64,000 nt of DNA from an uncultured Chloroflexia bacterium (GCA_963817095.1 CAWFND010000002.1:34841-98840); one strand, 5' to 3'; numbered from the stretch's first letter, positions 13,578-56,982 are shown. The notes: generated from the sequence alone by a model not told the origin. Program-made: numbers and translations.

Positions 13578-14596
13578 AGTCGACCCGCCGCGACCTCGTC
13601 GCGGATCCACGGGATGACCTCGTCGAGCATCGTCTCGAGCGACGTGGTCGCCTCGTACCCGAGAACCGCCTTCGCCTTGCGGACGTCCGGGACGCGGAGC
13701 TGGACGTCGTGCTCGAACGGCGCATCCGAGACATACGCGAACGGGCGGCCGTCCGTGTGGATCTTCGACCAGATGCACTCGGCGAGCTCGAGGACCGTCG
13801 TCGACCGCGCCGTCGACAGGTTGAAGTCGTTGTTGATCCCGTCCGGTGACTCCATCGCCAGCCGGATCCCGTGAGCGAGGTCGCCGCCGTACGTGTAGTG
13901 GCGGACCTGCGACCCGTCGCCGAGGATGTGGAGAGGATCCTGGCCCTTGAGGACCTTGAGGACGAGATCCGGCACGACGTGTGACAGCGCCAGCTTCACG
14001 TTGCCGGACATGATGTCGGTGTCGCGAACGGCGCGACGCTCGCCGATCCCGACACAGTTGAAGGGCCGGACGATCGTGTACGGCAGCTCGTACTGCTCCC
14101 ACGCGCCGGCCGCGAAGAACTCCGCGGCGAGCTTCTGGAAGCCGTAGGTGGAGACCGGCGGCGGGGACGTCAGCTGCGCGCCTTCGGGCGTCGGGAAGAC
14201 GGTCGCCGACTCGTAGACCATCGAGCTGCTGACGACGATGATCCGGTCCAGGGTCCCGGCCTTGTGCGCGGCGATCGCCGCATCGAACGTGGCGGCGAGG
14301 ATCCGCTCGTTCTCGGCGATCAGGTCGTACGCGAACTCGTGGAAGTAGCTGATCCCGCCGATCATCGCGGCGGCCGCCACGACCTGGTCGACATCGGCCG
14401 CGAGCTCCGTCATCAGCCCGATGTCCTTGGCATCGCCCTCGACGAATCGGTAGCGCGGATGGTCGTCGTACGACTTCGTCAGCCGGCCGTACTTGCTGAA
14501 GTCATCGAGCCCGACGACGTCGTGACCGGCCTCGAGGAGCTCGGGCACGAGGTAGCCGTTGATGAACCCGGCGGCGCCGGTGACGAGGATCTTCAC
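13574..14596 (-). CDS. NAD-dependent nucleotide-sugar epimerase/dehydratase (extended SDR)
   Basis: MKILVTGAAGFINGY, catalytic YGFQK. GTG 14596 has a ggagg SD upstream. Intact 340 aa. Confidence 0.9.
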   Translation of the reverse strand: MKILVTGAAGFINGYLVPELLEAGHDVVGLDDFSKYGRLTKSYDDHPRYRFVEGDAKDIGLMTELAADVDQVVAAAAMIGGISYFHEFAYDLIAENERILAATFDAAIAAHKAGTLDRIIVVSSSMVYESATVFPTPEGAQLTSPPPVSTYGFQKLAAEFFAAGAWEQYELPYTIVRPFNCVGIGERRAVRDTDIMSGNVKLALSHVVPDLVLKVLKGQDPLHILGDGSQVRHYTYGGDLAHGIRLAMESPDGINNDFNLSTARSTTVLELAECIWSKIHTDGRPFAYVSDAPFEHDVQLRVPDVRKAKAVLGYEATTSLETMLDEVIPWIRDEVAAGRL

Positions 14597-15263
14597 TCCG
14601 ACCTCCGCGGCGCGCCGGCCGACGTACGAGCGTCTGCCGGCCGAGGATCCACCAGGCCGGCCGGAATGCGAGATACGCTCGGACGAGCCAGCCGTTCTGC
14701 GGGAACTTGCTCTTCGTCGTGTAGGGCAGGAACCGGACCACGAGCTCCTCGGTCTCGAAGCCCGCGGTGTCCGCAGCCTCTTCCAGGCTCTTCTCGGTCA
14801 GCGGCGTCTTGTGATCGAGGAAGTCCCAGTACGAGCCACCGACGAGACGGATGTTCGGCTGGAGGATGATCACCCGCCCGCCGGGCCGGAGCACCTGGCC
14901 GACGACCTTCAGCTGGGCGACGACCTCGTCCGCCGAGCCGAGGTGCTCCAGGTAGTTGCTCATGAAGACCACATCCACCGAGGCGGGTGCGATGTGGTCG
15001 AGGATCTCGAGGCCGTTGCTCTGGACGAACCGCACGCCCGGATCCAGGTGGGCCCGGACGTCGCGCAGGTCGACGGCGATGCGATCGCCCGCCTTGACGA
15101 CGTTGATGAACGCGCCGCGATCGCAGGCGAGGTCGAGGACCGTCGACGACGGATCGATGTAGCGCTGGAGGAACCGCGTGATCTCGCGCCAGACCTCGCC
15201 GCGTCGCGGCGAGTCGGCGTCGCTGAAGCGCCGGGCGTAGATCGCCGGAAGGTCATCGTCCAC
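14502..15263 (-). CDS. Class I SAM-dependent methyltransferase; 3' end uncertain
   Basis: VLDLACDRGAF (motif I) and LRPGGRVIILQPN. The Arg-rich tail overlaps the next gene by 95 nt. In another frame a TGA forms a GTGA overlap with GTG 14596, so a late frame error is possible. Confidence 0.75.
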   Translation of the reverse strand: MDDDLPAIYARRFSDADSPRRGEVWREITRFLQRYIDPSSTVLDLACDRGAFINVVKAGDRIAVDLRDVRAHLDPGVRFVQSNGLEILDHIAPASVDVVFMSNYLEHLGSADEVVAQLKVVGQVLRPGGRVIILQPNIRLVGGSYWDFLDHKTPLTEKSLEEAADTAGFETEELVVRFLPYTTKSKFPQNGWLVRAYLAFRPAWWILGRQTLVRRPARRGGRSEDPRHRRRRVHQRLPRARAPRGRSRRRRAR

Positions 15264-15284: not shown

Positions 15285-16480
15285 TCACAGGGCGATCCCG
15301 CGGCCGAGGGCACCCCAGACGTCGACGACATCCTTGCCGCCGATCTCGAGGTTTCGATACGCCTTGTGCGGCACGCCGAGGACGAGGATGTCGCTCTCCT
15401 GGAGGACGCACTCGAGCGTCGTCAGGCGCTCGTCGACCACGTACGGGTCCGTGCAGATCACAGTCGCGCCGGCCCACGCCAACAGCTTGCGCAGCTTGTA
15501 GCTGAGTGACGCCCGCATGTCGTCGGACTCGGCCTTGAAGGCCATGCCGAGGATCCCGACCGTCTTGCCCGCGAGGCCGCCGTAGCGGCGCTCGAGGGCC
15601 GAGACGACGTACGCCGGCAGCCCCTCGTTGACCTGCATCGCGGCCTGGCCGAGCGGGAAGTGATCGGTCGTGAATGCGGCGAGCTGCATCGTGTCCTTGA
15701 ACAGGCACGGCCCGGCGGCGAACCCGGGCCCGGCAGGTCCTGTGCTCGCGGATAGTCGGTCCGGATGGCGTTGAGGACGTTCGTGTAGTCCACGCCCGCC
15801 TGGTCCGCGATCATGAAGAACTGGTTCGCGACGGCGAACTTCATGTACCGCCAGGTGTTCGTGAAGAGCTTCGCGAGCTCGGCCTCCTTCGAGGTCGTCC
15901 GGATCGTCGACGGCACGAGGTTCGCGAAGAGCGCGGCAGCGCGGGTGGCTGCCCGGTCGTCGTCGGCACCGATGATCTGCGGCAGGCTGTGCAGCTCCTC
16001 CAGCGCGTGGCCCTCGGCGATCCGCTCCGGGCAGAACGCGACGTCGACGTCACAGCCGATCGCCTTGAGGCGCTGGGCCACGTACGCGGTCGTTCCCGGG
16101 TAGACGGTGCTGCGGAGGGCGACGAGCGCGCCTTGCCGGACGTGCGGAGCGATCTGGTTGACCGCTCGCTCGAAGACCGTCATCGACGGCCCGAGGAACT
16201 CGTCCACCGGGGTCCCGATCACGACCACGATCTGGTCGGTCCGCTCGAGGATCGCGCCGTCCGTGCTCATCTCCAGCCGGCCCGTGTCGAGGACCCGCCG
16301 AAGGAGCTCGTCCGCCCCGGTCTCGAGGAACGGCATCTTGCCCGCCGCGACCCGATCCAGGGTGGGCTGGCTGAGGTCGTAGATGCCCGTCCGCAGGCCG
16401 GCGTCGGCGAAGACGAGGCTCAGCGGAAGACCGACGTGGCCCGCGCCTCCAAGGACCACGACGTCGAGATCGGACGGCAT
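15285..16480 (-). pseudogene. UDP-glucose/GDP-mannose dehydrogenase-family nucleotide-sugar dehydrogenase, one frame break
   Basis: The N-terminal part (ORF 15458..16480) carries VVVLGGAGHVG. The C-terminal part (ORF 15285..15689) follows. The junction should read DLPGPGFAAGPCLFKDT, but one base is missing at the C3 run 15723-15725. Confidence 0.85.
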
Positions 16481-19753: not shown

Positions 19754-20955
19754 TCAGCTCGCCGCCGATTCGGAGAGGCGGACCGCGCGGGCCCCCTCGT
19801 CGTAGATCTCCTCGATCGCCTTGACCATCAGCTCGACGCAGAAGCGCTCGTGGGCGAGGTCGTGGCCGGCACGGGCGATCTGGCTGGCGAAGGCATGGTC
19901 GCGGAGCAGGCGGACGATGCGCGTTTGCGAGGGCGACCGGGTTGTCGTGCTCGACGAGGAGGCCGGTCACGCCGTCCTCGATCATCTCGGGGATCCCGCC
20001 GACGTCGGACGCGACGACCGGTCGCGAGAGCGCCATCGCCTCGAGGATCGAGAGGCCCTGGGCCTCGCGCCAGCTCGGCAGCACCGCGACGTCGAGCGCT
20101 GCGGTCACCGCCGGGACGTCGTCGCGCCGGCCGGTGAAGATCACCCGGTGGGCGACCTTGTGGGCCGCTGCCCACTGCTCGAGGAAGTCCCGCCGAGACC
20201 CCTCACCGACGATCAGCAGATACGCGTCCGGCACCTCGCGGAGGACATGCGGCCAGGCCTCGATCAGGGTCTGGTGGCCCTTCTCGGGCTCCAGCCGGGC
20301 CACGACCCCGACGATCTGCGAGCCGGGTTCCATGCCGAACTCCTCGCGCAGCGTGGACGGGCCCTGGTGGTCGTACCGCTGAAGGTCGACGCCGTTGTAG
20401 ATCAGCCGGACGGGCGCGCCCGGTCCGATGCTCGTCGGCGATCTTCCGGACGATCGAGCGGCTCACGGCGATCAGCTGGTCCATGTTCGGGGTCAGCTGG
20501 CGGATCAGCTCGCGATCCTCGTCGGAGCGGACGCGCGACGAGTGGACGGTCGACACGACGTACGGCCGGCGATGCCCGGTCGCGGCAAGCGCCATCGCGG
20601 CCTTCGTGCCGATCACGTCGGCGCGGTACATGTGGGTGTGGATGACGTCCGGGCGGACGAGGGCGAGGTGCGCGGTGAGGGCTCGAACCGCGGCCGCGTC
20701 ATCCGGATCGTCGATCACGGTCACCGGGATGCCGTGCCGCTCCAGCTTCCGCACCGCGCTGCCGCCGGCCAGGGCGACGACCGACGCGTCGTAGTGCGTC
20801 GCGTCGAGCCGGGTCATGAGCGAGAAGAGATGCTCCTGTGCGCCGCCGTTCGAACCCGTCGCGAGGATCTCGACGACCCGGACGCGATCCGGTCCGGGCA
20901 GGTCGAGGTGCTCGATCGGGACGAGGCAGGGGTCCCAGAGGGGAGGCGCGCCCAT
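19754..20955 (-). pseudogene. GT4 (GT-B fold) glycosyltransferase, two frame breaks
   Basis: The first fragment is VVEILATGSNGGAQEH..VHSSR..IADEH. The second is IGPGAPVRLIYNGVD...EPEKGH...PSWREAQGLSILEAMA..GIPEMIEDG. The third is IVRLLRDHAFASQIARAG..YDEGARAVRLSESAAS, with its stop at 19754. The breaks lie at ~20415 and ~19920. Confidence 0.85.
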
Positions 20956-23702: not shown

Positions 23703-24169
23703 CCCTACCGCGCCCGGGCGTTCGACTCCGCCGACAACGGCCCGGTCCCGACGGCATTCACCGCAGCGACCTTGTAGTAGTAGCGCGTGCCTGCGGTCGT
23801 CGCGGTGTCCGTGTAGCTCGTGACCACGCCGACCGCGACGAGGAACGTCTCGGTTCCGCTCGACGTGCTCCGGTAGATGCGGTAGCCGCTGATCGCCGCG
23901 CCACCTGTCGACGTCGGGGCCAGCCAGGTGAGGGTGACCCCCTTCGTCGCGGCGGTCCTCGCGGTCAGGCTCCTCGGTGCCGTCGGGACCGTTGCCGGCC
24001 TTGCCGAGACCTCCGCGGACCGTGCGCTCTCGCCGACCGCATTGACCGCGGTGACCTGGTAGTAGTACGTCGTGCCGTTGGTCAACCCCGTGTCCGCGAA
24101 GGTGGTCGTTCCGGCCGCCACCGTCGTTCTCAGGGTCTCAGCGCCGGACGCGGTCCCTCGGTAGACGCG

Positions 24170-25460
24170 ATAGCCGGTGATCGAGCTGCCGCCGGTGCTG
24201 GCGGGGGCGACCCAGGTCAGGCCGACCTGGCCGTTGCCGGGGGTGGCGACGAGACCGGTCGGGGCACCCGGCGACGGTCGGCGGCGGCGGCGGCGCGACC
24301 GGTGTCGCGGTCGCCGGGCTCGACGCGGGTCCGGTCCCGACCGCGTTGGTCGCGGTGACGGTGAACGTGTAGGCCTGGCCGTTGGTCAGGCCGCTGACCG
24401 TGCAGTTGAAGGTCGAGCCGTTGCTCGTGCAGGTGCCCGTGCCCGGGCTGGCGGACGCGGTGTAGCCGGTGATCGAGCTGCCGCCGGTGCTGGCGGGGGC
24501 GACCCAGGTCAGGCCGACCTGGCCGTTGCCGGGGGTGGCGACGAGACCGGTCGGGGCACCCGGCGCGGTCGGCGGCGGCGGCGGCGCGACCGGTGTCGCG
24601 GTCGCCGGGCTCGAGGCGGGTCCGGTCCCGACCGCGTTGGTCGCGGTGACGGTGAACGTGTAGGCCTGGCCGTTCGTCAGGCCGCTGACCGTGCAGTTGA
24701 AGGTCGAGCCGTTGCTCGTGCAGGTGCCCGTGCCCGGGCTGGCGGACGCGGTGTAGCCGGTGATCGAGCTGCCGCCGGTGCTGGCGGGGGCGACCCAGGT
24801 CAGGCCGACCTGGCCGTTGCCGGGGGTGGCGACGAGACCGGTCGGGGCACCCGGCGACGGTCGGCGGCGGCGGCGGCGCGACCGGTGTCGCGGTCGCCGG
24901 GCTCGACGCGGGTCCGGTCCCGACCGCGTTGGTCGCGGTGACGGTGAACGTGTAGGCCTGGCCGTTCGTCAGGCCGCTGACCGTGCAGTTGAAGGTCGAG
25001 CCGTTGCTCGTGCAGGTGCCCGTGCCCGGGCTGGCGGACGCGGTGTAGCCGGTGATCGAGCTGCCGCCGGTGCTGGCCGGGGCGACCCAGGTCAGGCCGA
25101 CCTGGCCGTTGCCGGGGGTGGCGACGAGACCGGTCGGGGCACCCGGCGCGGTCGGCGGCGGCGGCGGCGCGACCGGTGTCGCGGTCGCCGGGCTCGAGGC
25201 GGGTCCGGTCCCGACCGCGTTGGTCGCGGTGACGGTGAACGTGTAGGCCTGGCCGTTCGTCAGGCCGCTGACCGTGCAGTTGAAGGTCGAGCCGTTGCTC
25301 GTGCAGGTGCCCGTGCCCGGGCTGGCGGACGCGGTGTAGCCGGTGATCGAGCTGCCGCCGGTGCTGGCGGGGCGACCCAGGTCAGGCCGACCTGGCCGTT
25401 GCCGGGGGTGGCGACGAGACCGGTCGGGGCACCCGGCACGGTCGGCGGCGGCGGCGGTGC
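24170..25460 (-). repeat. Five near-identical tandem 291/292-bp repeats, each encoding one FN3 domain plus a PPPPP linker
   Basis: The antisense ORFs starting MIELPPVLAG recur at 24177, 24469, 24760, 25052 and 25343 (spacing 292, 291, 292, 291). The minus-strand translation gives a 97-aa FN3 unit. Confidence 0.9.
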
Positions 25461-25469
25461 GACCGCATC

Positions 25470-27110
25470 AAGGAACAGGCCGGACAGGACGGCATTGCCG
25501 CCGCCGTTCGTTCGACGGTGACGACGACCGACCCGCCGGCCGGGACGACGATCGGGGCGTGGATCCATGCGCCCTGGACGAAGGAGTTGGCGGCGAGGGA
25601 CGCGGTTCGCGGTCCGCGGCCGTCGTTGATGCGTGACGTTCTCGCCGCGCGGACCGTAGCGTCCCAGTCGACGGCGTAGAGCGTGGAGGGTGCCGGTGTA
25701 GGCGTTCGTGAACGTCAGTCGAAGGCGGATCTGGTTCGCGTCGTACCAGGTCATCGAGCTCGCCGCTCCGTCCCCGTCGGGCTCTGGAGGGCGCGGACGT
25801 CGGTCGTCGTCGCCGCCCACGAGTACCGCGAGCCCTGCTCGAACGCGTAGGTCACGCCGGCGGGGAGGCTCGACGAGGTCGGCGTGTTCGTGCCGTCCCA
25901 GTTGGCGAGGACGTAGCCGTCGGCGCCGTACGTGCCGAGCCAGTGCCCCTGACGCCGGGCAGATCGATCGTCGGCGGGGCGGTGGCGGGGGCGGCGGCGG
26001 CGGAGTGGCCCCGGCCCGCCGAGGAACAGGCCGGACAGGACGGCATTGCCGCCGGCCGTTCGATCGACGGTGATCGACGACCGAGCCGCCCGCCGGGACG
26101 ACGATCGGGGCGTGGACCCATGCGCCCTGGACGAAGGAGTTGGCGGGCGAGGGACGCCGTCCGCGATCCGCGGCCGTCGTCAATGCTGACGTTCTCTCCG
26201 CGCGGACCGTATGCGTCCCAGTCGACGGCGTAGAGGTGGATCGTGCCGGTGTATGCCGTCGGTGAACGTCAGCCGAATCCGGATCTGGTTGGCGTCGTAC
26301 CAAGTCCCGAGCTCGGCGCTCCGTGCCGCGTCGGGCTCTGGAGGGCGCGGACGTCGGTCGTCGTCGCCGCCCACGTGTACCGCGAGCCCTGCTCGAACGC
26401 GTAGGTCACGCCGGCGGGCAGGCTGACGAGGTCGGCGCGTTCGTCCCGTTCCAGTTGGCGAGGACGTAGCCGTCGGCGCCGTAGTTGCCGAGCCAGTCCC
26501 CTGGACGCCCGGGCAGGTCGACCGTCGGCGCGGGCGGCGGCGGGGGCGGCGGCGGCGGCAGTGGCCCCGGCGCCGCCGAGGAACAGGCCGGACAGGACGG
26601 CGGTCGTCGCCGGCCGTCCGATGTCGGCGGTGATCGACGACCGAGCCGCCCGCCGGAACCGACGATCGGGGCGTGGACCCAGGCGCCCTGGACGAAGGAG
26701 CTTGGCGAGGCTGGACGCGGTTCTGCGGTCCGCGGCCGTCGTCGATGCGTGACGTTCTCGTCGCGGTCGCCGACCGTATGCGTCCCAGTCGAGGGCGTAG
26801 AGGTGGAGCGTGCCGGTGTAGGCGTTGGCGAACGTCAGGTGGAGCCGGAGCTGAGTTCGTGTCGTACCAGGTCATCGAGCCGCCGCTCGGTCCTGGTCGG
26901 GCTCTGCGAGGGCGCGGACGTCGGTCGTCGTCGCCGCCCAGACGTACCGCGACGCCCTGCTCGAGGCTGTAGGTCACGCCCGGCCGGGAGGCTCGCCAGG
27001 TCGGCGTCGTTGCCCGTCCCAGTTGGCGAGGACGTAGCCGTCGTGCGCCGTAGTTGCCGAGCCAATTGCCCTGAGCGTTCGCGGCCGTCTGAACGCTGAC
27101 CGAGTTCGCT
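25470..27110 (-). repeat. Three diverged tandem ~560-bp coding repeats (unknown ~185-aa domain plus poly-Pro linker)
   Basis: ccagttggcgaggacgtagccgtcg.gcgccgta recurs at ~25895, ~26451 and ~27020. The encoded consensus reads W-LGNYGADGYVLANW...LPAGVTY..EQG...TTTDVRAL...WYDANQIR.RLTF..AYTGT.HLY..DWD...GAWVHAPIVVPAGGSV...NAVLSGLFL. Confidence 0.75.
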
Positions 27111-28860
27111 CGCTCGTCTGGCCGGCTGTGTCGGTCGCGGTCGCGGTGAACGTGTAGGCGCCGCCGATCGACGGCGTCCCGCGTCCCATGGCATCGTCCA
27201 GCCGTTCGGAGCCGTCCGTGTCCGTCGACCGGCGGCACGCCGTTGACGAAGAAGTCGACCCTCGCGACGCCGATGGTCGTCCGTGGCCGTCGCCGTCACG
27301 ACGATCGGCCCGGACACGGTCGCGCCGTCGACGGGCGAGGTGATCTGGACCGTGGGCCGCCGATCGCCCGGGTTCCCGCCTCGTGACCGCGTTCAGCGCA
27401 TTGACGAGCGGCTCCGCGATGCCGTCGGGATCATTGCCCCACTGGCCCTTGCCGACGCAGTCGCCGCTGCCGTCGGCATCGGCCAGCTGGCCGTTCGGGC
27501 ACTCGCCGGTCGATTTGAGGCGATCCTCGACGTCGGCCGGGGTCAGGTTGGGGAACGCGGCCAGGAGGAGCGCGGCGACGCCGGCCACGTGCGGCGACGC
27601 CATGCTCGTGCCCATCTCGGTCGCGTACCCGCCGCCCGTCCAGTCGGAGTAGATCTGGGTCCCGGGCGCTGCCACGTCGATCGAGGCCCCGAAGTTGCTG
27701 AACTCGGCGAGCGTGTCGTCGCAGTAGATGAAGAACAGCCAGCAGCCACCCTGCCCACCCGGCTCGCCGTCGAGATCGGTGATCGCGGAGACCGAGATGA
27801 CCTCGGGGAACGCGGCCGGGATGAACGTCGACGCATCCACGGTCGAGTTGCCGGCGGCCGCGACATACGTGACGCCCGCCGCGACGGACTTGCAGATCGC
27901 CTCGCGAACACCGCCGTCGGTGCAGCGTCCCGATCGAGCCGACGTCGCCGAGGCTCATGTTCGCGACGCGGATGTCGTTGGTCGGGTCGTTGTCGGTGGC
28001 GTACGCGGTCAAGGTGTCGATGGCGCAGATGAGGTTCGACCACTCACCGGAGCCGCTGTCGTCGAGGACCTTGAACGGAACGAGGCGGGCTCGCGGCGCG
28101 ACACCGACGACCCCGATGCCGTTGTCCGCGGCGGCGACGATGCCGGCCACGTGGGTCCCATGGCCATGACCGTCCTGGGGCGGACCCGCGGTCATGCAGT
28201 TCTTGCCGAGCCCGACGTCCAGGTTCGGGACGAGATCGGGATGGGTCAGGTCGATGCCGGTGTCGAGGATCGCGACCCGGACGCCTGCGCCGGTGAATCC
28301 GGCGGCGTAGGCGCTCGGATCGGTCGGGTGATTGGCTCGGATCCGCGAGATCCCCGTCGGGATCGACGTCGCCGAGCGCGTGGATCGTGCCGTCGGGCAC
28401 GATGGAGCGAACGTTCGGGTTCCGAGCCAGGGCCGCCGCAGCCTTGGCCGAGCCCTTGAAGACGAACCCGTGAAGCGCGTGGCGGAAGACCATCCCGGCC
28501 TTGCCGCCGGAGCCCTTCGCGAGTGGACCCGCAATCCGATCCGTGTCCGCGCGCGGTTGCATCGACACGATCCAGCTGGTCGTCGACGATGCGCGCGAGG
28601 ATGGACGCCGCGGGGTCGCGGGTCGCGGGCGGCACAGCGGACGCCATGTTCGGGACCGTCAGAGTCAGGACGGATCCGAACAGGATCGCCGCTCGGAAGC
28701 GCCTCCCTCGCGCTCCGGTCATCGCATCCCCACGCTAAGCCGCATCGACCCGCGATCGAGTCCGCAGAGTGTCTGCCGCGCTCGATCGCGGCGTCAATCA
28801 GGGAACTGTGCGTATTGCCGGTAGTGGTGCCGAACGGCACCGGCCAGTAGTCGGCCGAGC

Positions 28861-31256
28861 CTACCCCTCCGACAGCTTGATCAGCTCGGCGGGCGACAGC
28901 TTCGGCGAGTGATCGCCGAAGAGCCGTCGCAGCAGCCAGTACTCCGGCAGCGGCCGGTCGTCCGTGATCAGTGGGCCGTCCCCGACGATCCGCTCGACAT
29001 CGTCGCCCTGGATCCAGACGAGCTGCGGGATCTTCGCCGCCCAGGCGTCGGCGGTCTTCGCCGGGGAGTCGTACGCGGATGAGATGTCCTCGAGGATGCC
29101 CGGTCGGGCCAGGACGTTCCGGATGTTCTCGTCCGTGAACTGGAGCGGCTGATCACTGCCGATCAGGAAGAACCCGTAGCCGCCGGGCCCGAACGCGACG
29201 ATGACGTTCGGAAAGACCGTCCGGAACGTGCGGATGTGGTCGAGGAAGTCGTCGACCGTCCCGCCGTAGGGCGTCCACTGCATCATCACGCCGCCCGGGT
29301 TCAGGCGGCTCGCGCCTGCCTGGTAGTACTCGAGCGACGAGATCACCGCCGCCCCTGAGCTCTCGATCGGCGGCGGCGGGTCCGTGACGATGATGTCGTA
29401 GGTCTTCGGCGTGAGCTCGAGGTGGTTGCGGCCGTCGGTCACGATCACGTTGGCGTTCGGCTTCGCCGAGGATCGCGTCCGCGTCCGGGTAGAACCAGTG
29501 GAACATCTTCGGGACGGACGGGACGAGCTCGACCGCGTCCGTCTTCAGGCCCGCGATCACCGCGGCCCGGAACGCGGAGCCCATCCCGAACGCGACGGTC
29601 GCCGCCGACTGCGAATCCGGCCGGAGCATGAGCGGCAGGATCGGCATCAGCTTCGCATCCACCGTGAGGAGGGTCATCGCCGTCCCGGTCACCCACAGCT
29701 GCTTGCCGGTCATCTCGCCGGCCTGGACGGACGCGATCTCGTCCTCCTCGGACTGGAACAGGGTGCCGTGCATCGCCTGGATCCGCGCCACGGACGGGTC
29801 GACGAAGCGGGTCGTGCGCCGGCGACACAAGGTTCCAGACGATGGCCACGGCCAGCAAGGACGAGCCGGCGGCCACGATCCCGCGCGCCACGGGCGTGAC
29901 CCCGGTCGCGGACGCGATCAGCAGGCCGGCGAGGCCGAGGTTGACGAGCGCGATCAGGGCGACCGTCGCGGGCGAGCCGAGAATCGGGATCAGGAAGAAC
30001 GGGACGACGAAGGTCCCGACGATCGCACCGACCGTGTTCGCGGCGAGGAGGCGGCCTGCGAGCGTCGCGATCCTGGACGGATCGTCCGCGAGCAGGCTGG
30101 ACGACGCAGGAAAGCTCATGCCCATGACGAACGTTGCCGGCAGGACGACGAGGAGCGCGGGGCGGAGGATCGCCCACAGGGTCTCGAGAGCCTTGGACGG
30201 CTCGAGCGCGTACGGCTGGGAGATCACGAGGACCAGACCGCCGACGGTGATCATCGCCACGGCCAGCTGGGTGAACGCCAGGAACAGGACCGGCTGCCGG
30301 ATCCGCGGCCGGATCGCCGCGTAGACGGTCGCGCCCAGGACCAGCCCGATCAGGAAGATCGCCAGGATCGTGCTGAAGATGTACGTGGAGTTCCCGGTGC
30401 CTGACGACAGGAGGCGGTTCCACAGGGTCTGGTAGGCGAGCGACGTCAGGCCCGAGATGAACGCGACCGTCAGCGCGAGGCTGGGCCGGGCACGACCGGC
30501 TGGGATCACATGATCGGGCGCCCGGTCGAGCGTCGCGGACGCGGCCGTCTCGACCGCCGGCCGGGGCCCGACCTCGGCTTCGGCCGCCGTCCTCCCGCGA
30601 TCGATGATCAGGGCCACGACGCCGGCGATCCCCGAACAGGTCGCGCCGACGAGCAGGGTTGTCGAAAGCCCGAGCAGTTCGATCAGGAAGAAGCCCGCCG
30701 CGATCGTCCCGATGATCGCTCCGAACGTGTTCGCGGCGTAGAGCCGGGAGAACGCCCGCGACAGGTGCTGGTCGTCGGTGAGGTAGCGAGTCAGGGTCGG
30801 GAGCGTCGCGCCCATCAGGATCGTCGCCGGCGCCAGCGCGACGATCGCGAGGCCGAACCGGACGAGCGAGAGCAGCCCCGGCTGCGTCTCGAGGCTGGTG
30901 AAGGCGGCGCGGTAGACCTCGTGGAGGAGCCGGAACGTGATCGGGGTGAGGATCACGACGACGACGAGGATCAGCTCCAGGAAGCCGTACAGGCGGAGCG
31001 GCGACCGCACCCGATCGGCCAGGCGTCCGCCGACGAACGAGCCGACCGCCATCCCCCCGAAGAACCCGGTGAGGATCGTCGCGATGGCCTGGGTCGTGTT
31101 GCCGAAGACGAGGACGAGCTGGCGCGACCAGACGACCTCGTAGACCAGACCCGCGGCGCCCGACAGGACGAAGATCGCGAGAATCAGTCCGGATCGGCGC
31201 ACGGGGACCCTCCGCGTCGGTTCGGCTTGGATTGAAGGTGGCGGGCAGTGTCGCAC
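28861..31256 (-). pseudogene. Fused MFS-like membrane domain and spermidine-synthase-like domain, two frame breaks
   Basis: The N-terminus has ~12 TM helices (LAIFVLSGAAGLVYEVVWSRQL; GTG 31202 is an alternative start). The middle part is TTRFVDPSVARIQAMHGTLFQSEEDEIASV..MFHWFYPDAD. The C-terminus is KPNANVIVTDGRNHLELTPKTYDIIVTDPPPP..MMQWTPYGG. The breaks lie at ~29825 and ~29465. Confidence 0.8.
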
Positions 31257-50565: not shown

Positions 50566-50736
50566 ATGGCGCTCGTTCACCAGTTCCTCGCCTCGCTTCG
50601 TCGGGACGAGGAGGGCCAGGGTCTCGCGGAGTACGCGCTGATCCTCGCACTCATCGCGATCGTGGCGATCATCGCCCTGATCTTCCTGGGCACCCAGGTC
50701 TCCACGATCCTGTCGAAGGTCGGCGCGTCGGTCTAG
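50566..50736 (+). CDS. flp: Flp-family type IVb pilin (copy 1)
   Basis: 56 aa: MALVHQFLASLRRDEEGQGLAEYALILALIAIVAIIALIFLGTQVSTILSKVGASV. An aggagg SD lies 8 nt upstream. The ORF is below the track's size cut-off. Confidence 0.9.
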   Translation: MALVHQFLASLRRDEEGQGLAEYALILALIAIVAIIALIFLGTQVSTILSKVGASV

Positions 50737-50757
50737 CCGACTCCCACCGAGACACCT

Positions 50758-50795
50758 GAACCGCCGGGGCCTTCGGGCTCCGGCGGTTCTCTTTG
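50758..50795 (+). terminator. GC-rich hairpin followed by a T-rich tail, after flp copy 1
   Basis: gaaccgccggggcc-ttcg-ggctccggcggttc (14-bp stem with 1 mismatch), then tctctttgt. Confidence 0.6.
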
Positions 50796-50890
50796 TGCTC
50801 CCGGGAGACACGGCGGACGTCGAACGACGCGAGCGTGGATGGTGCGGCGCGGCTCCGCCTAGTCGGCGCAACGCTCATTCATTCGTCTCA

Positions 50891-50920
50891 TTGACACCGC
50901 CGAGGGTTCGCCCGTACGGT
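50891..50920 (+). promoter_or_regulatory. Candidate promoter of flp copy 2 (TTGACA-N18-TACGGT)
   Basis: -35 ttgaca at 50891-50896 and -10 tacggt at 50915-50920. Sibling promoters occur before copies 3 and 4. Confidence 0.5.
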
Positions 50921-50976
50921 GGCGCCCGCCTTCGGCTCCGGCCGGGGAGCTCTCGAGGAAAGGAGGTATTGCCCAC

Positions 50977-51147
50977 ATGACGTTCTTCACCGCACTCATG
51001 TCGTCCCTTCGTCGGGACGAGGAAGGCCAGGGTCTCGCCGAGTACGCGCTGATCCTCGCCCTCATCGCGATCGTCGCGATCATCGCCCTCATCTTCCTTG
51101 GCACGCAGGTCAGCACGATCCTGTCGAAGGTCGGCGCCTCCGTCTAG
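50977..51147 (+). CDS. flp: Flp-family type IVb pilin (copy 2)
   Basis: MTFFTALMSSLRRDEEGQG then LAEYALILALIAIVAIIALIFLGTQVSTILSKVGASV. An aaggagg SD lies upstream. Confidence 0.9.
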   Translation: MTFFTALMSSLRRDEEGQGLAEYALILALIAIVAIIALIFLGTQVSTILSKVGASV

Positions 51148-51163
51148 CTTCGGACCAACGAAC

Positions 51164-51198
51164 AAGACCGCCGGGCCCTTCGGGGCGCCGGCGGTCTT
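51164..51198 (+). terminator. GC-rich hairpin after flp copy 2
   Basis: aagaccgccgggccc-ttcg-gggcgccggcggtctt, then cgtgatt. Confidence 0.55.
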
Positions 51199-51258
51199 CG
51201 TGATTCCGGCGCCCGAGAGGGCCGATGCGTGCTGTCATCGCTTTTGCGGCCGGCCTTC

Positions 51259-51288
51259 TTGACGAAACGGATCGGCCGCTCGTAAGGT
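51259..51288 (+). promoter_or_regulatory. Candidate promoter of flp copy 3 (TTGACG-N18-TAAGGT)
   Basis: -35 ttgacg at 51259-51264 and -10 taaggt at 51283-51288. Confidence 0.5.
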
Positions 51289-51342
51289 TCGCCGGCCCCC
51301 GGGGTTCATCGGGGAGTCTCGAGGAAAGGAGGTCCCACACAC

Positions 51343-51513
51343 ATGTCCGTTCTGAATGCACTTATCGCATCCTTCCGCCGGGATGAGGACGGCCAGGGTC
51401 TCGCCGAGTACGCGCTGATCCTCGCCCTCATCGCGATCGTGGCGATCATCGCCCTGATCTTCCTCGGCACCCAGGTCAGCACGATCCTGTCGAAGGTCGG
51501 CGCCTCCGTCTGA
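51343..51513 (+). CDS. flp: Flp-family type IVb pilin (copy 3)
   Basis: MSVLNALIASFRRDEDGQG followed by a mature part identical to copies 1-2. An aaggagg SD lies upstream. Confidence 0.9.
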   Translation: MSVLNALIASFRRDEDGQGLAEYALILALIAIVAIIALIFLGTQVSTILSKVGASV

Positions 51514-51525
51514 CGCAGCACCGAT

Positions 51526-51561
51526 GAACCGCCGGGCCGCATCGCGCGGTGCCGGCGGTTC
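51526..51561 (+). terminator. Imperfect GC-rich hairpin after flp copy 3
   Basis: gaaccgccgg...ccggcggttc outer arms with inner ccgc/gcgg pairing. Confidence 0.45.
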
Positions 51562-51625
51562 GTCGTCTCCGGCCCCTTGTGGCCTGGGCGGTGCGTCACC
51601 GCGCCGCCCTGTACCAAGGGACCTA

Positions 51626-51653
51626 TTGACAGGCACGTCACACGGCCTACCGT
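51626..51653 (+). promoter_or_regulatory. Candidate promoter of flp copy 4 (TTGACA-N16-TACCGT)
   Basis: -35 ttgaca at 51626-51631 and -10 taccgt at 51648-51653. Confidence 0.45.
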
Positions 51654-51729
51654 GCGTCGTGCCGGGGGCGCGCCTATCCCGACCTCCGGGAGCGCCCATT
51701 CGGGACGTTCGACGGAAGGAGGTGAATCA

Positions 51730-51921
51730 GTGTCCCAGTTCCGGCGGATCGCCGCCCGGTTGCGTCAGACATGGCGTGACGAAGACGGCCAGGGTCTGGC
51801 CGAATACGCACTCATCCTTGCGCTCATCGCGATCGTCGCCATCGTTGCCTTGATCTTCATGGGGCAGCAGGTGAGCAACAAGCTCAGTGTCATCGGAAGC
51901 ACGATCCAGTCCGTGCAATAA
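51730..51921 (+). CDS. flp: Flp-family type IVb pilin (copy 4, divergent mature region)
   Basis: GTG 51730 lies within ORF 51577..51921, with an aaggaggtg SD. Sequence: VSQFRRIAARLRQTWRDEDGQGLAEYALILALIAIVAIVALIFMGQQVSNKLSVIGSTIQSVQ. Confidence 0.85.
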   Translation: MSQFRRIAARLRQTWRDEDGQGLAEYALILALIAIVAIVALIFMGQQVSNKLSVIGSTIQSVQ

Positions 51922-52160: not shown

Positions 52161-53069
52161 TTGAAGCGCTCGAATCGGCTTGTCCTGCTCGTCGGGGTGT
52201 TCCTGGCGGTCGTTGCGTTTGTCGGAATCGCGCTGTTGCTGAACAACGGCGGCTCGACGACCAACAACAACAACACCGCGGTCCCGACACAGCTTCCGAC
52301 TGTCATCGCGAAGCAGGACATCAACCTCGGGGTGACTGTCACCGCTGACATGCTCGATACGCAGACGATCGACGTGACCAACCGAAAGGCGACCGCGTAC
52401 GGTGATCCGAGCCAGGTCGTCGGGCAGGTCGCGCGCCGGCCGATCAAGGCCACCTCGCAGCTCGAGACGGCCGACTTCGACACGAGCGGCACCGGCGTGA
52501 CGACGATCACCGTTCCTCCGGGCATGCGAGCGATCTCCGCCCAGGTCGACCAGGTCTCCGGCGTCGGCACCGTGATCAACACGGGCGACTACGTCGACCT
52601 CCTCGTCGGCTTCACCGGTGACAAGTTCCCGGTCGTGACGGTGAACCCGCAGGACAACTCGATCAGCGTCGTCAGCGGCCTCAACGGGACGAGCGTGAAG
52701 CTCCTCCTCGAGGGCATGCAGGTCCTCGGCCGGCAGCTCCCGCCCCCGACCACGACCCAGGCCCAGCAGCCTGCCGAGAACGGACAGACGCCCAGCGGAC
52801 AGCCGACGACGTCGCTCAACGGCCAGCAGGAGATCGTCATCCTGGCGGTGACCCCGGCCCAGGCCGAGGTGATCAAGTTCGCCCAGCTGGACGGCTCGAT
52901 CAGCCTCGTCCTCCGCTCCTCGAAGGACTTCGTCGACGACCAGGGCAACCCGGTCGTGACCCCGCCGAGCGGCACGGACGGCATCACCCTCAAGAAGCTC
53001 ACCACGGACTTCGCGGTTCCGATCCCGGAGCTCGTCGAGGCCATCCTCCCCGCCCAGGCCAAGCGCTAG
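52161..53069 (+). CDS. cpaB: Flp pilus assembly protein CpaB/RcpC-like
   Basis: LKRSNRLVLLVGVFLAVVAF TM anchor, then SAF-like VIAKQDINLGVTVTADML and RcpC-like VPPGMRAISAQVD..GDYVDLLV. The TTG 52161 start fits the family better than the ORF-track start at 52125. Confidence 0.8.
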   Translation: MKRSNRLVLLVGVFLAVVAFVGIALLLNNGGSTTNNNNTAVPTQLPTVIAKQDINLGVTVTADMLDTQTIDVTNRKATAYGDPSQVVGQVARRPIKATSQLETADFDTSGTGVTTITVPPGMRAISAQVDQVSGVGTVINTGDYVDLLVGFTGDKFPVVTVNPQDNSISVVSGLNGTSVKLLLEGMQVLGRQLPPPTTTQAQQPAENGQTPSGQPTTSLNGQQEIVILAVTPAQAEVIKFAQLDGSISLVLRSSKDFVDDQGNPVVTPPSGTDGITLKKLTTDFAVPIPELVEAILPAQAKR

Positions 53070-53222
53070 CCGGCCGAGGCACCACGCCGGTCGCGAGAGC
53101 CACCGGTCGAACGAGCCAAGCGCGACGGGCGCGTCGGACTCCGGTCCCCGCGCCCGTCCAACGCTCCGGGGACCCGTTCCCCGGCCACCCCCAGCAGCGA
53201 GACCTACCGGACCACTGAACGA

Positions 53223-54482
53223 ATGGCCGACCAGATCCGCGTCCTGATCGTGGACGACATCCCGGAGACCCGCGACCACCTGACGAAGCTTCTCGGGTTC
53301 GAGAGCGACATCGAGGTGGTCGGGTCCGCCGCCTCCGGCAGCGAGTCGCTGTCGATGGCCGGCGAGCTGCTCCCGGACGTCGTCCTCATGGACATCAACA
53401 TGCCCGACATGGACGGGATCGCCGCGACCGAGAAGCTCTCGTCGCAGGTGCCGAGCGCCTCGGTCGTGATGATGTCCGTCCAGGGCGAAGCCGACTACCT
53501 CCGCCGGTCGATGCTCGCGGGAGCCCGCGAGTTCCTCGTCAAGCCGTTCAGCAGCGACGAGCTGACCGCCTCGATCCGCCAGGTCTACACGCGCGAGCAG
53601 GACAAGCTCAGCCGGATGGCGATCGCGCCGGTCGCGGCCGGTTCGCCTCCGCGCGGCGCCGCCGGCGGCGGCGAGGACGGCCAGGAAGGCCAGGTCGTCG
53701 CGATCTTCAGCCCGAAGGGCGGGGTCGGCCGCACGACGGTCGCCGTCAACCTTGCGGTCGCCGCGGCGACGGAGCTCGGCAAGACGGTCGTGCTCGTCGA
53801 CGGGTCGTTCCAGTTCGGCGACGTCGGCGTGCTCCTGAACCTGAACCCGAAGAACAAGTCGATCGCGGACCTGGTGCCGGAGCTGGAAGCCGGCGAGCCC
53901 GAGTCGCTCGACACGTTCATCATCAATCACTCCGCCGGGATCCGGGTGCTCCTCGCCCCGCCGTCCCCGGAGATGGCCGAGCTGATCACGCCGTCCGGCG
54001 TCCGCCGGGTCCTGGAGGCGCTCCGCCGTCACCACGACCTGGTGATCGTCGACTGCACGTCGTGGTTCAACGAGACGACGCTCGCGATCCTCGATGCCTC
54101 GGACATCGTCCTGACGATGCTCAGCCTCGAGATCACGAGCATCAAGAACATGCGGTTGTTCCTGGAAGTCGCCGAGCAGCTCGGCTACGACCAGCAGAAG
54201 GTCAAGCTCGTCCTCAACCGGGCGGACTCCAGTCTCGGCATCCGCGTCTCCGACGTGGAGAGCTCGATCGGCCGGAAGGTCGATCACACCATCGTCAGCG
54301 ACGGGCGGTCCGTCGTGTACGCCCTCAACCGGGGAGTACCGTTCTTCCTGTCCAACCGGGAGGCGCAGGTCTCCCAGGACATCCTCCGTCTGGCCCAGTC
54401 GATCGCCGGGGAACGGGCCGCTGCCCCGAGCGACGAGGCACGCAAGACGGCCCAGAAGAAGTCGTTGTTCTCATTCCGATGA
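53223..54482 (+). CDS. cpaE: CpaE/TadZ-like ParA/MinD ATPase with an N-terminal response-regulator receiver domain
   Basis: REC domain (RVLIVDD, VVLMDINMPDMDG, LVKPF) plus a deviant Walker A (IFSPKGGVGRTTVAVNLA). Intact 419 aa. Confidence 0.85.
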   Translation: MADQIRVLIVDDIPETRDHLTKLLGFESDIEVVGSAASGSESLSMAGELLPDVVLMDINMPDMDGIAATEKLSSQVPSASVVMMSVQGEADYLRRSMLAGAREFLVKPFSSDELTASIRQVYTREQDKLSRMAIAPVAAGSPPRGAAGGGEDGQEGQVVAIFSPKGGVGRTTVAVNLAVAAATELGKTVVLVDGSFQFGDVGVLLNLNPKNKSIADLVPELEAGEPESLDTFIINHSAGIRVLLAPPSPEMAELITPSGVRRVLEALRRHHDLVIVDCTSWFNETTLAILDASDIVLTMLSLEITSIKNMRLFLEVAEQLGYDQQKVKLVLNRADSSLGIRVSDVESSIGRKVDHTIVSDGRSVVYALNRGVPFFLSNREAQVSQDILRLAQSIAGERAAAPSDEARKTAQKKSLFSFR

Positions 54483-54530
54483 TGTCGTCGGTCACAGCGG
54501 CCCAACGCGGCGCGATAAGGGGTTGATGCG

Positions 54531-55946
54531 ATGTCTTTGCTGAAGCGGATCGAGAGCGCTCGTCCGGGCGCCGGGCCGGCTCCGGCCTCCACCGGAGTGC
54601 CGGCTCCCGGGCGGGTCCGGCCGCCCCGAGCGGACCGTCCGGAGGCGACGCCACCGGCCCAGCGCCTGATGACCCAGGCGCCGGTCCGGGAGTCGTTCCG
54701 TGACGTCAAGTTCCGGATCCAGAGCCGGGTCATCCAGGACCTGGACCCGAAGCTCGACCTGTCGAACCAGGTCGAGGTCCGGCGCCAGATCGAGGAGATC
54801 TTCGGCAAGGTCATCGACGAGGAAGGCCTCGCCCTGACCCGCGCCGAGCGCGTCCGGATGCTCGAGCAGATCACCGACGAGATCATCGGCCTCGGCCCGT
54901 TGGAGCCCCTCCTCCGCGACGAGTCGATCTCGGAGGTCATGGTCAACGGCCCGCGCCAGGTCTACATCGAACGCTCGGGCAAGCTCGAGCTGACGAACGT
55001 CGTCTTCCAGAACGACGACCACGTCATGCGGATCATCGACCGGATCATCGCCCCGATCGGTCGCCGCGTCGACGAGTCGTCGCCGATGGTCGACGCCCGA
55101 CTGACCGACGGCTCCCGCGTCAACGCGATCATCCCGCCGCTGTCCCTCGTCGGCCCCGTCATCACGATCCGGAAGTTCTCCGCGTCGCCGTTCACGGTCG
55201 ACGACCTCGTCCGGTTCGGCACGGCAACTCCCGACATGTTCGACTTCCTCCGCGCCTGCGTGGAAGCCAGGCTGAACGTCTTCGTCTCCGGCGGCACGGG
55301 CTCCGGCAAGACCACGACCCTGAACGTCCTCTCCTCGTTCATCCCGAACGACGAGCGGATCGTCACGATCGAGGACGCGGCCGAGCTCCAGCTCCGCCAG
55401 GAGCACGTCGTCACGCTGGAGTCGCGCCCGCCGAACATCGAAGGCAAGGGCGCCATCCCGATCCGCGAGCTCGTCCGGAACTCCCTCCGGATGCGGCCCG
55501 ACCGGATCATCGTCGGAGAGTGCCGCGGCGGTGAGGCGCTGGACATGCTCCAGGCCATGAACACCGGTCACGACGGCTCGATGTCGACCGGCCACGCCAA
55601 CAGCCCGCGCGACATGCTCGCCCGTCTCGAGACGATGGTCCTCATGGCCGGCGTCGACCTCCCGGTCCGCGCCATCCGCGAGCAGATCGCCTCGGCGGTC
55701 GACCTGATCGTCCAGCAGAGCCGCCTCAAGGACGGGACCCGGAAGATCGTCAACATCACCGAGGTCCAGGGCATGGAAGGCGACGTCATCGTCATGCAGG
55801 ACGTCTTCGTCTTCGAGCAGACCGGTGTCGTCGAAGGCAAGATCCAGGGCCGCCTGAAGGCGACCGGGATCCGGCCCAAGTTCGTCGAGAAGTTCGAGGT
55901 GATGGGCATCCATCTGCCTCCGGGCCTCTTCGGCTTCAGCTACTGA
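54531..55946 (+). CDS. cpaF: CpaF/TadA secretion ATPase
   Basis: Walker [15 protein letters not shown], Asp box [11 protein letters not shown], Walker B/His box [15 protein letters not shown]...[15 protein letters not shown]. Confidence 0.95.
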
Positions 55947-55965
55947 ACGCGGAGGAGGCCACGGA

Positions 55966-56979
55966 ATGCCAGTCATGACGCTCGTCGTCGCGGGCGTCGC
56001 CGCCGCCGCGATCTTCCTGATCGCGATCGGCATCGCGACGTCCGGCAGCGGCTCCGGCGTGAGCGCCCGTCTCGAGCGGTACGCATCGGCTCGCCAGAGC
56101 GGCAAGCCCGAGGCGTCCGGTCAGGGCGGCATCGCCGACCTGCTCGCGCAGTCCGTCGCCCTCGCCCAGCTGAACCGGGTCGTCGAGAACCGCGACTTCG
56201 GGGCGAACCTCGCCCGCGACATCGCCCGCGCCGACCTGAAGCTCAAGCCGTCCGAGTTCCTGGCGATCTGGGCCGGCTCCATCATCGGGATCCCGTTCCT
56301 GTTCGTCGTCCTGTCGCTCGGCCTGCCGGCCCTCCGCAGCCCGATCGCACTTCTCGTGGGCGCGTTCATCGGGTTCATGCTCCCGCGCTTCTGGCTGGGC
56401 CGTCGCAAGGCCGGCCGGCTGGGCGCGTTCAACAAGCAGCTGCCCGACACGATCACCCTCCTCGCCAACGGCCTCCGCGCCGGCTCGTCGTTCCTCCAGG
56501 CCGTCGAGCTCGTCGTCCGCGAGTCGCGGCCGCCGATGTCGACCGAGTTCAGCCGCGTCATTCGCGAGGTCAACCTCGGCCTGCCGTTCGAGCAGGCGAT
56601 GGAGAACATGGTCCGCCGCGTCCGGTCCGACGACCTGGAGCTGATGGCGACCGCGATCAACATCCAGCACACGGTCGGCGGCAACCTCGCCGAGATCCTC
56701 GACTCGATCGCCTACACGATCCGCGAGCGCATCCGGATCCAGGGCGAGATCCGCACCCTCACCGCGCAGCAGCGCCTGTCGGGCTACGTGGTCGGCTTCC
56801 TGCCGATCGGCCTCGCCGGCTTCCTGTTCATCGCGGCCCCGCACTTCATGGATCCGATGTTCCAGAAGCCGCCGGAGGCCCTGGGACTGCCGCTCGGCAT
56901 GGTCATCCTGTTCTTCGGCGGATTCATGATGTTCATCGGCTTCATGCTGATCCGCCGCATCGTCGACATCGAGGTCTAG
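55966..56979 (+). CDS. tadB: TadB-like type II secretion system F-family membrane protein
   Basis: T2SSF-type sequence (LPDTITLLANGLRAGSSFLQAVE...) with flanking TM helices. Intact 337 aa. Confidence 0.85.
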   Translation: MPVMTLVVAGVAAAAIFLIAIGIATSGSGSGVSARLERYASARQSGKPEASGQGGIADLLAQSVALAQLNRVVENRDFGANLARDIARADLKLKPSEFLAIWAGSIIGIPFLFVVLSLGLPALRSPIALLVGAFIGFMLPRFWLGRRKAGRLGAFNKQLPDTITLLANGLRAGSSFLQAVELVVRESRPPMSTEFSRVIREVNLGLPFEQAMENMVRRVRSDDLELMATAINIQHTVGGNLAEILDSIAYTIRERIRIQGEIRTLTAQQRLSGYVVGFLPIGLAGFLFIAAPHFMDPMFQKPPEALGLPLGMVILFFGGFMMFIGFMLIRRIVDIEV

Positions 56980-56982
56980 CCG

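Follow-up and report, generated by a model that had tools for sequence, protein, structure and literature searches.

The minus strand of a 64,000 nt stretch of DNA from an uncultured Chloroflexia bacterium (the window) contains a locus of about 5 kb that reads as a secreted subtilase with a long modular extension, and in which the reading frame is broken again and again. The question that it raises is whether this is a functional protease gene that has been damaged in its recorded sequence, or one that is being lost by the organism. What the locus encodes is a large secreted subtilisin-type protease of an ordinary kind, in the genome of a soil Chloroflexota, and we consider it probable that it is a genuine modular S8A endopeptidase gene, intact in the organism, in which the frame breaks are artefactual.

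The gene begins with an ATG at 28722 and ends with a stop codon at 23705-23707, exactly the limits originally predicted, and both its N- and C-termini agree with those of the intact orthologue P0001; the predicted product after frame correction is ~1,650-1,690 aa long. Pfam searches and translation show that the order of domains proposed at the outset, with a signal peptide, I9, S8, an Ig-like domain, three repeats and an FN3 array, is essentially right (Table 1).

Table 1. Features of the subtilase locus and its upstream neighbour, numbered from the first nucleotide of the window
Feature	Position	Strand	Basis
Whole gene, pre-pro-subtilase with C-terminal modular extension	23705..28722	-	Start and stop match orthologue P0001
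Signal peptide (MTGARGRRFRAAILFGSVLTLTVPNMASA)	28630..28722	-	Read from translation, conserved in P0001; putative cleavage site
Inhibitor_I9-like propeptide	28380..28598	-	Pfam PF05922, E=1.5e-4, 22.8 bits vs cutoff 21.2
Peptidase_S8 (S8A) catalytic domain with D/H/N/S motifs	27505..28291	-	Pfam on frame fragments and reconstruction
Big_7 bacterial Ig-like domain, ~8 indels inside	27140..27357	-	Pfam PF17957
Unnamed jelly-roll domain, copy 1, with poly-Pro linker	26564..27130	-	Repeat families, three-copy DNA alignment
Unnamed jelly-roll domain, copy 2, with linker	26010..26563	-	Repeat families, DNA alignment; domain model pLDDT 93.9
Unnamed jelly-roll domain, copy 3, with linker	25444..26009	-	Repeat families, DNA alignment
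Four near-identical FN3 units, 291 nt each	24304..25468	-	TRF, unit alignment, offset-583 comparison
Fifth FN3 unit, hybrid	23990..24303	-	Unit alignment and Pfam on reconstruction
Sixth FN3 unit, divergent, running to the stop codon	23708..23989	-	Translation and Pfam
Upstream neighbour, MFS_1 and spermine-synthase-like fusion, 781 aa in L001	28861..31202	-	

The identity of the catalytic domain is clear. Peptidase_S8 (PF00082) matches the frame-corrected sequence with E=2.5e-53 and 181.7 bits, above the gathering threshold, while in the raw sequence the match is split, profile positions 1-121 and 130-273 falling in different frames, and the domain is interrupted by a one-base insertion near 27926. 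Translation gives the catalytic motifs in D-H-N-S order (AILDTGID, HGTHVAG, AAAGNS and GTSMASPHVAG), so that all of the predicted D/H/S motifs are found together with an N motif; the Asp-His-Ser triad and the oxyanion Asn align with subtilisin across the entire S8 domain, and in the PDB the sequences that match best are those of Bacillus subtilisins (E~1e-44 to 1e-45). The Inhibitor_I9 match N-terminal to S8 is marginal, and similarly weak I9 matches occur in orthologues P0014 and P0017. Assignment to more specialized families was rejected, with the mycosin model (T7SS protease, TIGR03921) scoring 150.7 bits relative to a curated cutoff of 278.75, and dentilisin, EprS and anti-phage IteS all scoring far under their cutoffs.

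Intact orthologues of like architecture are numerous, and include P0001, P0003, P0004, P0014 and many others. P0001 (1560 aa; L001, CAVVCZ010000001.1) is syntenic and ~85% identical in nucleotide sequence, with 85.7% amino-acid identity once the window copy is projected onto the L001 reading frame; the best nucleotide match of the window among 78 contig loci is ~86%. The orthologues already have database entries as 'S8 family serine peptidase' and are uncharacterized, and a search of the literature on Limnocylindria extracellular proteases found nothing relevant.

The extent of the damage was evaluated with a codon-model DP, used in place of a GC-phase heuristic that is unreliable for strand in the FN3 region, and 26-31 shifts of frame had to be introduced before the gene could be read from end to end. 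Aligned with the intact L001 locus, the gene shows 47 one-base indels, 39 of them insertions and 8 deletions, relative to 0-9 indels in each neighbouring gene; as had been predicted, no other gene in the window is so frame-broken. No continuous ORF can be read from the raw sequence, and in that sequence the catalytic motifs do not share a frame with the FN3 array, two outcomes that, in a corrected sequence, the original prediction would have counted against itself; the gene is nevertheless not refuted, because the pattern of breaks points to consensus error and because intact full-length orthologues exist. Indel density is ~1 per 50 nt across 27400-25500, ~10 times that in the rest of the window and greatest in the first jelly-roll copy and its linker, and a tenfold local excess requires a local cause.

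Taken at face value, the lack of a continuous ORF and the number of shifts required could describe a true pseudogene, a subtilase that has been inactivated and is decaying in its lineage through real frameshift mutations; several further window genes also have frame-breaking indels relative to L001, which could mean reductive evolution, and the identical +1 insertion in two FN3 units of a duplicated 583 nt block could be a copied mutation. The character of the indels argues otherwise. Natural gene decay in bacteria is biased toward deletions, the opposite of the excess of insertions seen here, which becomes 24 one-base insertions to 1 deletion when only those events are counted that a seven-orthologue alignment defines as private to the window copy. 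In 20 of these 24 insertions the added base is the alternative orthologue allele of the adjacent column, relative to a chance expectation of 37-39% (p=4e-6 to 1e-5), such that both alleles of a polymorphic site stand side by side; examples are acGCtgc at 27926, tccGAac at 27206, and accgTCgcc in FN3 units 3 and 5, at a position occupied by T in unit 1 and by C in units 2 and 4. Sites of private insertion include 27926, 27276, 27207, 26748, 24857 and 24274. Moreover, after frame correction dN/dS comes to 0.26 overall and to 0.13 in S8, with one in-frame stop among 1549 projected codons, whereas ~47 neutral indels should be accompanied by hundreds of unconstrained substitutions. The locus thus has the disrupted frame of a pseudogene but neither relaxed selection, nor an accumulation of stops, nor an indel spectrum typical of mutation, and we regard decay of the gene in its lineage as quite unlikely.

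Breakage of the gene also follows the assembly technology, which is a further argument against decay. Frame switches are present at none of 11 presumed short-read orthologue loci and at 6 of 14 Nanopore-MAG loci (Fisher p=0.017), a sorting that rests partly on contig naming, and one of the Nanopore MAGs (L006) has a similar signature, with 8 insertions, 6 of them of the tandem-allele type, and no deletions. The relatives are Nanopore-only MAGs assembled with Flye and one round of Medaka (PMC12313526). A search of metagenomes for a short-read S8 copy from the same species gave no matches with one pattern and 6 loci with the other, which are 70-78% identical and were used only for the intactness of short-read orthologues. 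Another part of the window is matched at 99.1% identity by a 1270 nt JGI contig, and JGI metagenome 3300086615 is taken to include the same species. From the indel pattern we infer that the ~30-47 frame breaks are likely to be consensus artefacts and not gene decay; they would have arisen from heterogeneous long reads, with either strains that occur together or paralogous repeats within the gene as a plausible, if unproven, source of the heterogeneity.

Only two of the 24 private insertions lie in homopolymers (runs of 3 or more), and homopolymer-type Nanopore error was therefore rejected as the sole cause. The same scarcity bears on programmed or phase-variable frameshifting, in which a surface protein would be turned on and off through slippery repeats. 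Phase variation is common among surface proteins, and one break does sit in a C5/C4 run of an FN3 unit, but dozens of shifts would have to be corrected simultaneously, and no simple-sequence tract was found save for a 12 nt repeat in the Pro linker. Given how many shifts there are and where they lie, this explanation is effectively excluded.

The C-terminal extension had been proposed to include three repeats of ~185 aa, each a copy of an unknown domain; there are indeed three copies of a 554-567 nt unit without a Pfam match, although the domain itself occupies only ~160 aa, with the remainder being linker. No sequence match to this domain was found in Pfam, NCBIfam or a PDB profile search, in which the top result was the unrelated PriB (E=0.54); weak precomputed matches to Laminin_G_2, Pom and Transglycosylas fell below threshold and gave no accepted stretches. 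In P0001 one such module spans residues 544-708, and W7, W21, R55, R65, W130 and H132 of the domain are invariant. An AlphaFold2 model of the domain is all-beta (pLDDT 93.9, pTM 0.90), and its top Foldseek matches in the PDB are CBM61 (2xom), CBM6 (8j3x), CBM35 (2w3j) and CBM22 (4xup), with the gingipain K1 adhesin domain (4itc) also represented; these are matched with probability 1.0, E values of 2e-5 to 1e-3 and TM scores of 0.42-0.50, at sequence identities of 8-16% (~12% for the CBMs). The model thus has the beta-jelly-roll fold of CBM6, CBM35, CBM61 and CBM22, and the findings agree with the proposed protease and its stalk of binding modules, in so far as the repeats are modelled as CBM-like jelly-rolls. 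The domain is found in ~3,800 diverse representative proteins, with up to 12 copies in each, and recurs in giant proteins together with Big_7, BACON_2, Laminin_G_3, dockerin and FN3. Judging from the modelled fold, these modules most likely bind a polysaccharide, which may belong to insoluble organic matter or be the envelope glycan of the cell itself.

The Big_7 domain (PF17957) scores 46.5 bits on the reconstruction, and 67 bits (2.3e-18) in P0001. Indels are dense in its region too, although that region is not repeated. At the other end of the protein, fn3 (PF00041) matches six stretches of the frame-corrected reconstruction (E=3.5e-73), one fewer than the seven FN3 domains predicted, and the proposed division into five near-identical and two divergent units becomes four near-identical units, one hybrid and one divergent. 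TRF reports a period of 291 with 4.4 copies and 98% matches, and within the array the two-unit block of 583 nt, including its +1 'T' insertion, is repeated at 99.7% identity; the hybrid fifth unit matches the repeat units exactly over its first ~40% and diverges thereafter. The last FN3 domain is followed by no anchor motif, the protein ending in …GPLSAESNARAR directly before the stop codon and within FN3, as does P0001. Neither an LPXTG-type sorting signal nor a transmembrane anchor is present at the C-terminus, Pfam scans of the fragments and the reconstruction found no S-layer-homology or anchor domain, and the NCBIfam SGO_0316 LPXTG peptidase family was rejected (52 bits, cutoff 1400). Because there is no anchor motif, retention at the cell surface is speculative.

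The genomic setting suggests a more specific role. A gap of 139 nt separates the gene from the MFS/SpeE-like gene upstream of it, and the surrounding cluster encodes GT2, six GT87, GT4, a UDP-glucose dehydrogenase, an epimerase and a FemAB-like acetyltransferase, in keeping with the predicted location beside SpeE-like and GT-C (GT87) genes. It could therefore be proposed that the protease is dedicated to the envelope and coupled to this GT87/GT2/GT4 island, either as a glycosylated surface or S-layer-associated protein or as a processing enzyme docked through its jelly-rolls on the polymer made by the island. The gene sits inside the GT cluster and the order of genes is conserved in the two closest relatives, L001 and L008, the modelled modules have a CBM-like fold, and in high-GC Gram-positives O-glycosylation is typically found in Pro-rich linkers. 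However, gene order is kept only partially in L003 and L005, the orthologues in L016, L017, L004 and L006 lie in non-syntenic surroundings, and the jelly-roll domain is shared by ~3,800 diverse proteins; moreover, GT87 enzymes are lipid or glycan mannosyltransferases and not protein O-mannosyltransferases, and the protein has no anchor or S-layer-homology domain. The predicted functional tie to the glycan island is thus weak, although the location itself was correctly described, and we view such dedication as possible but rather doubtful. Still more tentative, and in our opinion unlikely, is a combined proposal in which the ~160 aa repeat is an unnamed CBM family found across thousands of large surface proteins, from soil Chloroflexota as well as from other high-GC bacteria, serves here to dock the protease on the envelope glycan made by the GT87/GT-C island, and the cluster of consensus errors mirrors strain-level hypervariability of a surface protein.

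We favour as the most likely function that of an extracellular protease tethered to glycan or to the cell surface. The Sec-type signal peptide would direct export of the protein, and the I9 propeptide would chaperone its folding and be removed autocatalytically. The mature enzyme would then carry the Big_7 Ig domain and three CBM-like jelly-rolls on poly-proline linkers, with the six FN3 domains acting as a spacer or stalk, and binding of the jelly-rolls to polysaccharide may keep a protease of broad specificity at its substrate or at the cell surface.

As biology, this is one more modular secreted subtilase of an uncultured soil lineage. Its repeat is nonetheless a confidently foldable CBM-like family that has no Pfam model and deserves a family definition. 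The gene also provides a worked example of how both alleles of a polymorphic site, when written in tandem, give +1 frameshifts, an artefact that, in MAGs assembled from long reads, fragments genes that are rich in repeats or vary between strains, and that would be mis-scored as pseudogenization.

The closest counterparts are the orthologues in MAGs of Candidatus Limnocylindria and 'uncultured Chloroflexia' (P0001, P0014, P0021), which have the identical architecture of a signal peptide, I9, S8, Big_7, one to four jelly-rolls and then FN3; P0001 has five FN3 units and is unbroken, whereas the window copy has six and is frame-broken. CBM61, CBM6, CBM35, CBM22 and gingipain K1 have in common with the repeats the predicted beta-jelly-roll, and are likewise appended to hydrolases as repeated modules, although the likeness to established CBM families is only moderate (TM 0.45-0.5, 12% identity) and there is no profile match to them. 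In the streptococcal C5a peptidase ScpA and lactococcal PrtP an S8 protease is followed by FN3-type domains that space the enzyme off the surface, and the same order of S8 and then several FN3-type domains is recognizable here, although this protein lacks a PA-domain insert, an LPXTG motif or any other anchor. With the Bacillus subtilisins (subtilisin E, BPN', NAT and Carlsberg; MEROPS S8A) it shares the D/H/S triad, an I9-type propeptide and a full-length alignment of the catalytic domain, but while those enzymes are ~275 aa when mature and are without C-terminal modules, here ~1,200 aa of Ig, jelly-roll and FN3 domains have been added.

The S8 gene, which encodes the modular secreted subtilase, lies in a window of ~71% G+C and, as first proposed, reads on the minus strand from ATG to stop, with its coding sequence spread across all three frames. 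Pfam searches of the frame fragments identified Inhibitor_I9 (22.8 bits; cutoff 21.2), Peptidase_S8 in two pieces (profile positions 1–121 in one frame and 130–273 in another), Big_7 and fn3; a signal peptide is present and all four subtilase motifs (AILDTGID, HGTHVAG, AAAGNS and GTSMASPHVAG) can be read, so the predicted propeptide, catalytic domain and Ig-like domain are borne out. The three copies of an unnamed domain are likewise present, as direct repeats of 554–567 nt each that gave no match in the Pfam search of the gene. The original prediction, otherwise a largely correct observation, erred in counting seven FN3 domains (five near-identical and two divergent): the count is six by GLTWV motif anchoring and again by hmmscan of the corrected C-terminus, with four near-identical units, one hybrid and one divergent. 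The FN3 array is a tandem repeat with a unit of 291 nt and 98% identity, and its copy number (6 here and 5 in L001, the syntenic locus of an intact orthologue) may be uncertain in the assembly. A 583-nt block of two FN3 units is present twice at 99.7% identity (2 mismatches in 619 nt); its length is not a multiple of 3, and both copies carry the same +1 'T' insertion.

Coordinates in the window of the S8 gene, its parts and other genes discussed
Feature	Position	Strand	Remark
S8 gene	28722–23705	minus	ATG 28722; stop 23705–23707
Densest frame breakage	27400–25500		within S8 gene
Unnamed-domain repeat 1	27130–26564	minus	direct repeat
Unnamed-domain repeat 2	26563–26010	minus	direct repeat
Unnamed-domain repeat 3	26009–25444	minus	direct repeat
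Two-unit FN3 block	24171–25372		present twice
MFS/SpeE-like gene	28861–31202		frame-breaking indels
GT4 gene	19754–20955		frame-breaking indels
UDP-glucose dehydrogenase gene	15285–16480		frame-breaking indels
Methyltransferase gene	14593–15263		frame-breaking indels
Four Flp-type pilin genes	50566–51921	plus	tandem
Tad/T2SSF-type operon	52161–57930		

The corrected N-terminal 1113 aa retrieved more than 7,000 matches, headed by P0001, an intact protein of 1560 aa that combines S8, Big_7 and three copies of the unnamed domain with five FN3 units; further relatives bear the annotation 'S8 family serine peptidase [Candidatus Limnocylindria bacterium]'. The contig encoding P0001 (L001/L002; CAVVCZ010000001.1, MAG MFD02242.bin.1.368, labelled 'uncultured Chloroflexia') is collinear with window positions 38635–13779 at ~85% nucleotide identity, sharing GT2, several GT87, an MFS/spermine-synthase-like fusion, the S8 gene, GT87, a FemAB-like acetyltransferase, GT4, UDP-glucose dehydrogenase, methyltransferase and epimerase genes. 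The fusion, the upstream neighbour of the S8 gene (L001 7497–9842), encodes 781 aa with an MFS_1 transporter-like membrane domain and a spermine/spermidine-synthase-like domain, the latter a weak match (E=2.6e-4), and is an unusual architecture within a GT87-rich glycan cluster. Elsewhere in the window, four Flp-type pilin genes (~56–63 aa, …GQGLAEYALILALIAIVAI…; three near-identical) lie directly upstream of a Tad/T2SSF-type operon.

With a dynamic programme that learned codon usage from the window's long ORFs, reading through the S8 gene takes 26–31 frame corrections of one or two bases, against ~25 further frameshifts that this model suggests in the rest of the window (roughly 1 per 2.4 kb), so that the gene is ~10 times worse than its surroundings and is indeed, as had been claimed, the most frame-broken in the window. 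Global DNA alignment with the intact L001 gene gives 39 insertions and 8 deletions, each of one base, and neighbouring genes have 0–9 indels each. Compared with their intact orthologues in L001, many genes at 13779–38635 have reading frames broken by single-base indels, from one to a few per gene; the strong insertion bias is not seen in this region outside the S8 gene. Residual indel error appears to extend across the whole contig.

When the S8 gene is aligned jointly with seven orthologues, 24 clean one-base insertions and a single deletion prove private to it. Two of the 24 insertions fall in homopolymers, and in 20 the extra base is an alternative allele carried by other orthologues in the adjacent column, for which two null models give a chance rate of 37–39% (p = 4e-6 to 1e-5). 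Thus position 27926 reads 'acGCtgc', with G in L001 and C in the orthologous loci L008, L016 and L017; position 27206 ('tccGAac') is a further example, and FN3 units 3 and 5 read 'accgTCgcc', with T in unit 1 and C in units 2 and 4. Consensus callers write both alleles in tandem when two haplotypes or paralogous repeat units pile together, and no mutational process known to us would do so at a variable site.

If the breaks were real and the gene a true pseudogene, the ~47 neutral indels should have been accompanied by many unconstrained substitutions and stops, but projection onto the L001 frame leaves one stop in 1549 codons and 85.7% amino-acid identity, and dN/dS computed on that projection is 0.13 for the S8 domain, 0.17 for Big_7 and 0.26 for the whole gene; the substitutions look fully constrained. 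Breakage also tracks sequencing technology: none of the 11 orthologous loci taken as short-read assemblies, a class assigned from MEGAHIT, SPAdes or JGI contig names, has a frame switch, compared with 6 of 14 Nanopore-MAG loci (Fisher p = 0.017). The Nanopore MAG locus L006 (10001–13200) has the same signature, with 8 insertions, 6 of tandem-allele type, and no deletions; orthologues in Nanopore MAGs L008, L017, L022, L029 and L023 are likewise frame-broken, and the C-terminal ~120 aa of the protein deposited from L016 (P0002) are an out-of-frame FN3 translation. Related MAGs are Nanopore-only Flye assemblies with one round of Medaka polishing, and their authors acknowledge Nanopore-associated errors at lower coverage (PMC12313526). 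A pseudogene is therefore improbable; the frame breaks are probably assembly artefacts and the breakage most likely not biological. Our metagenome search found no same-species short-read contig covering the S8 gene. A 1270-nt contig from a JGI metagenome (3300086615, Ga0683531_0221322) is 99.1% identical, with no gaps, to another part of the window (55730–56999), so the species is also present in an independent data set usable for re-polishing the locus. Useful by-products of the gene are a clean case of a tandem-allele consensus artefact and an unnamed CBM-like domain family.

We gathered 147 instances of this domain from homologues and aligned 54 diverse copies, with a mean column identity of 58% and invariant G5, W7, G12, G15, W21, R55, L57, R65, G88, G128, W130, V137, G159, L162 and G163. 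An exhaustive profile search found it in 3,766 representative proteins at E≤1e-3 (2,474 at E≤1e-10), in up to 12 copies, in architectures that include giant proteins where it alternates with 13–21 Big_7 domains and others where it accompanies BACON_2, Laminin_G_3, dockerin or FN3; it is thus a widespread extracellular module. AlphaFold2 gives a confident all-beta model (pLDDT 93.9, pTM 0.90), whose top PDB matches by Foldseek are the carbohydrate-binding modules CBM61 (2xom/2xon), CBM6 (8j3x), CBM35 and CBM22, with Cry-toxin domains and the gingipain K1 adhesin domain also among the best. At TM 0.42–0.50 and identities of 8–16%, these point to a fold class in common with CBMs rather than to demonstrated family membership, and sequence searches of Pfam, NCBIfam and PDB gave no match.

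A secreted protease bearing a stalk of binding modules, as suggested, is a sensible reading; the modules are predicted to be CBM-like, and with the FN3 stalk they would hold the protease on a polysaccharide-containing substrate or the cell envelope; no anchor motif was found in the translation or by comparison with P0001. The proposed tie to the glycan island is based only on gene order: L001 and L008 retain it, L003 and L005 do so in part, and it is absent around the orthologues in L016, L017, L004 and L006. Mycosin and other specialised S8 families scored far below cutoffs. The S8 protein is best supported as an exported, self-processing protease, and the closest relatives of its catalytic domain are the broad-specificity Bacillus subtilisins (E ~1e-45).
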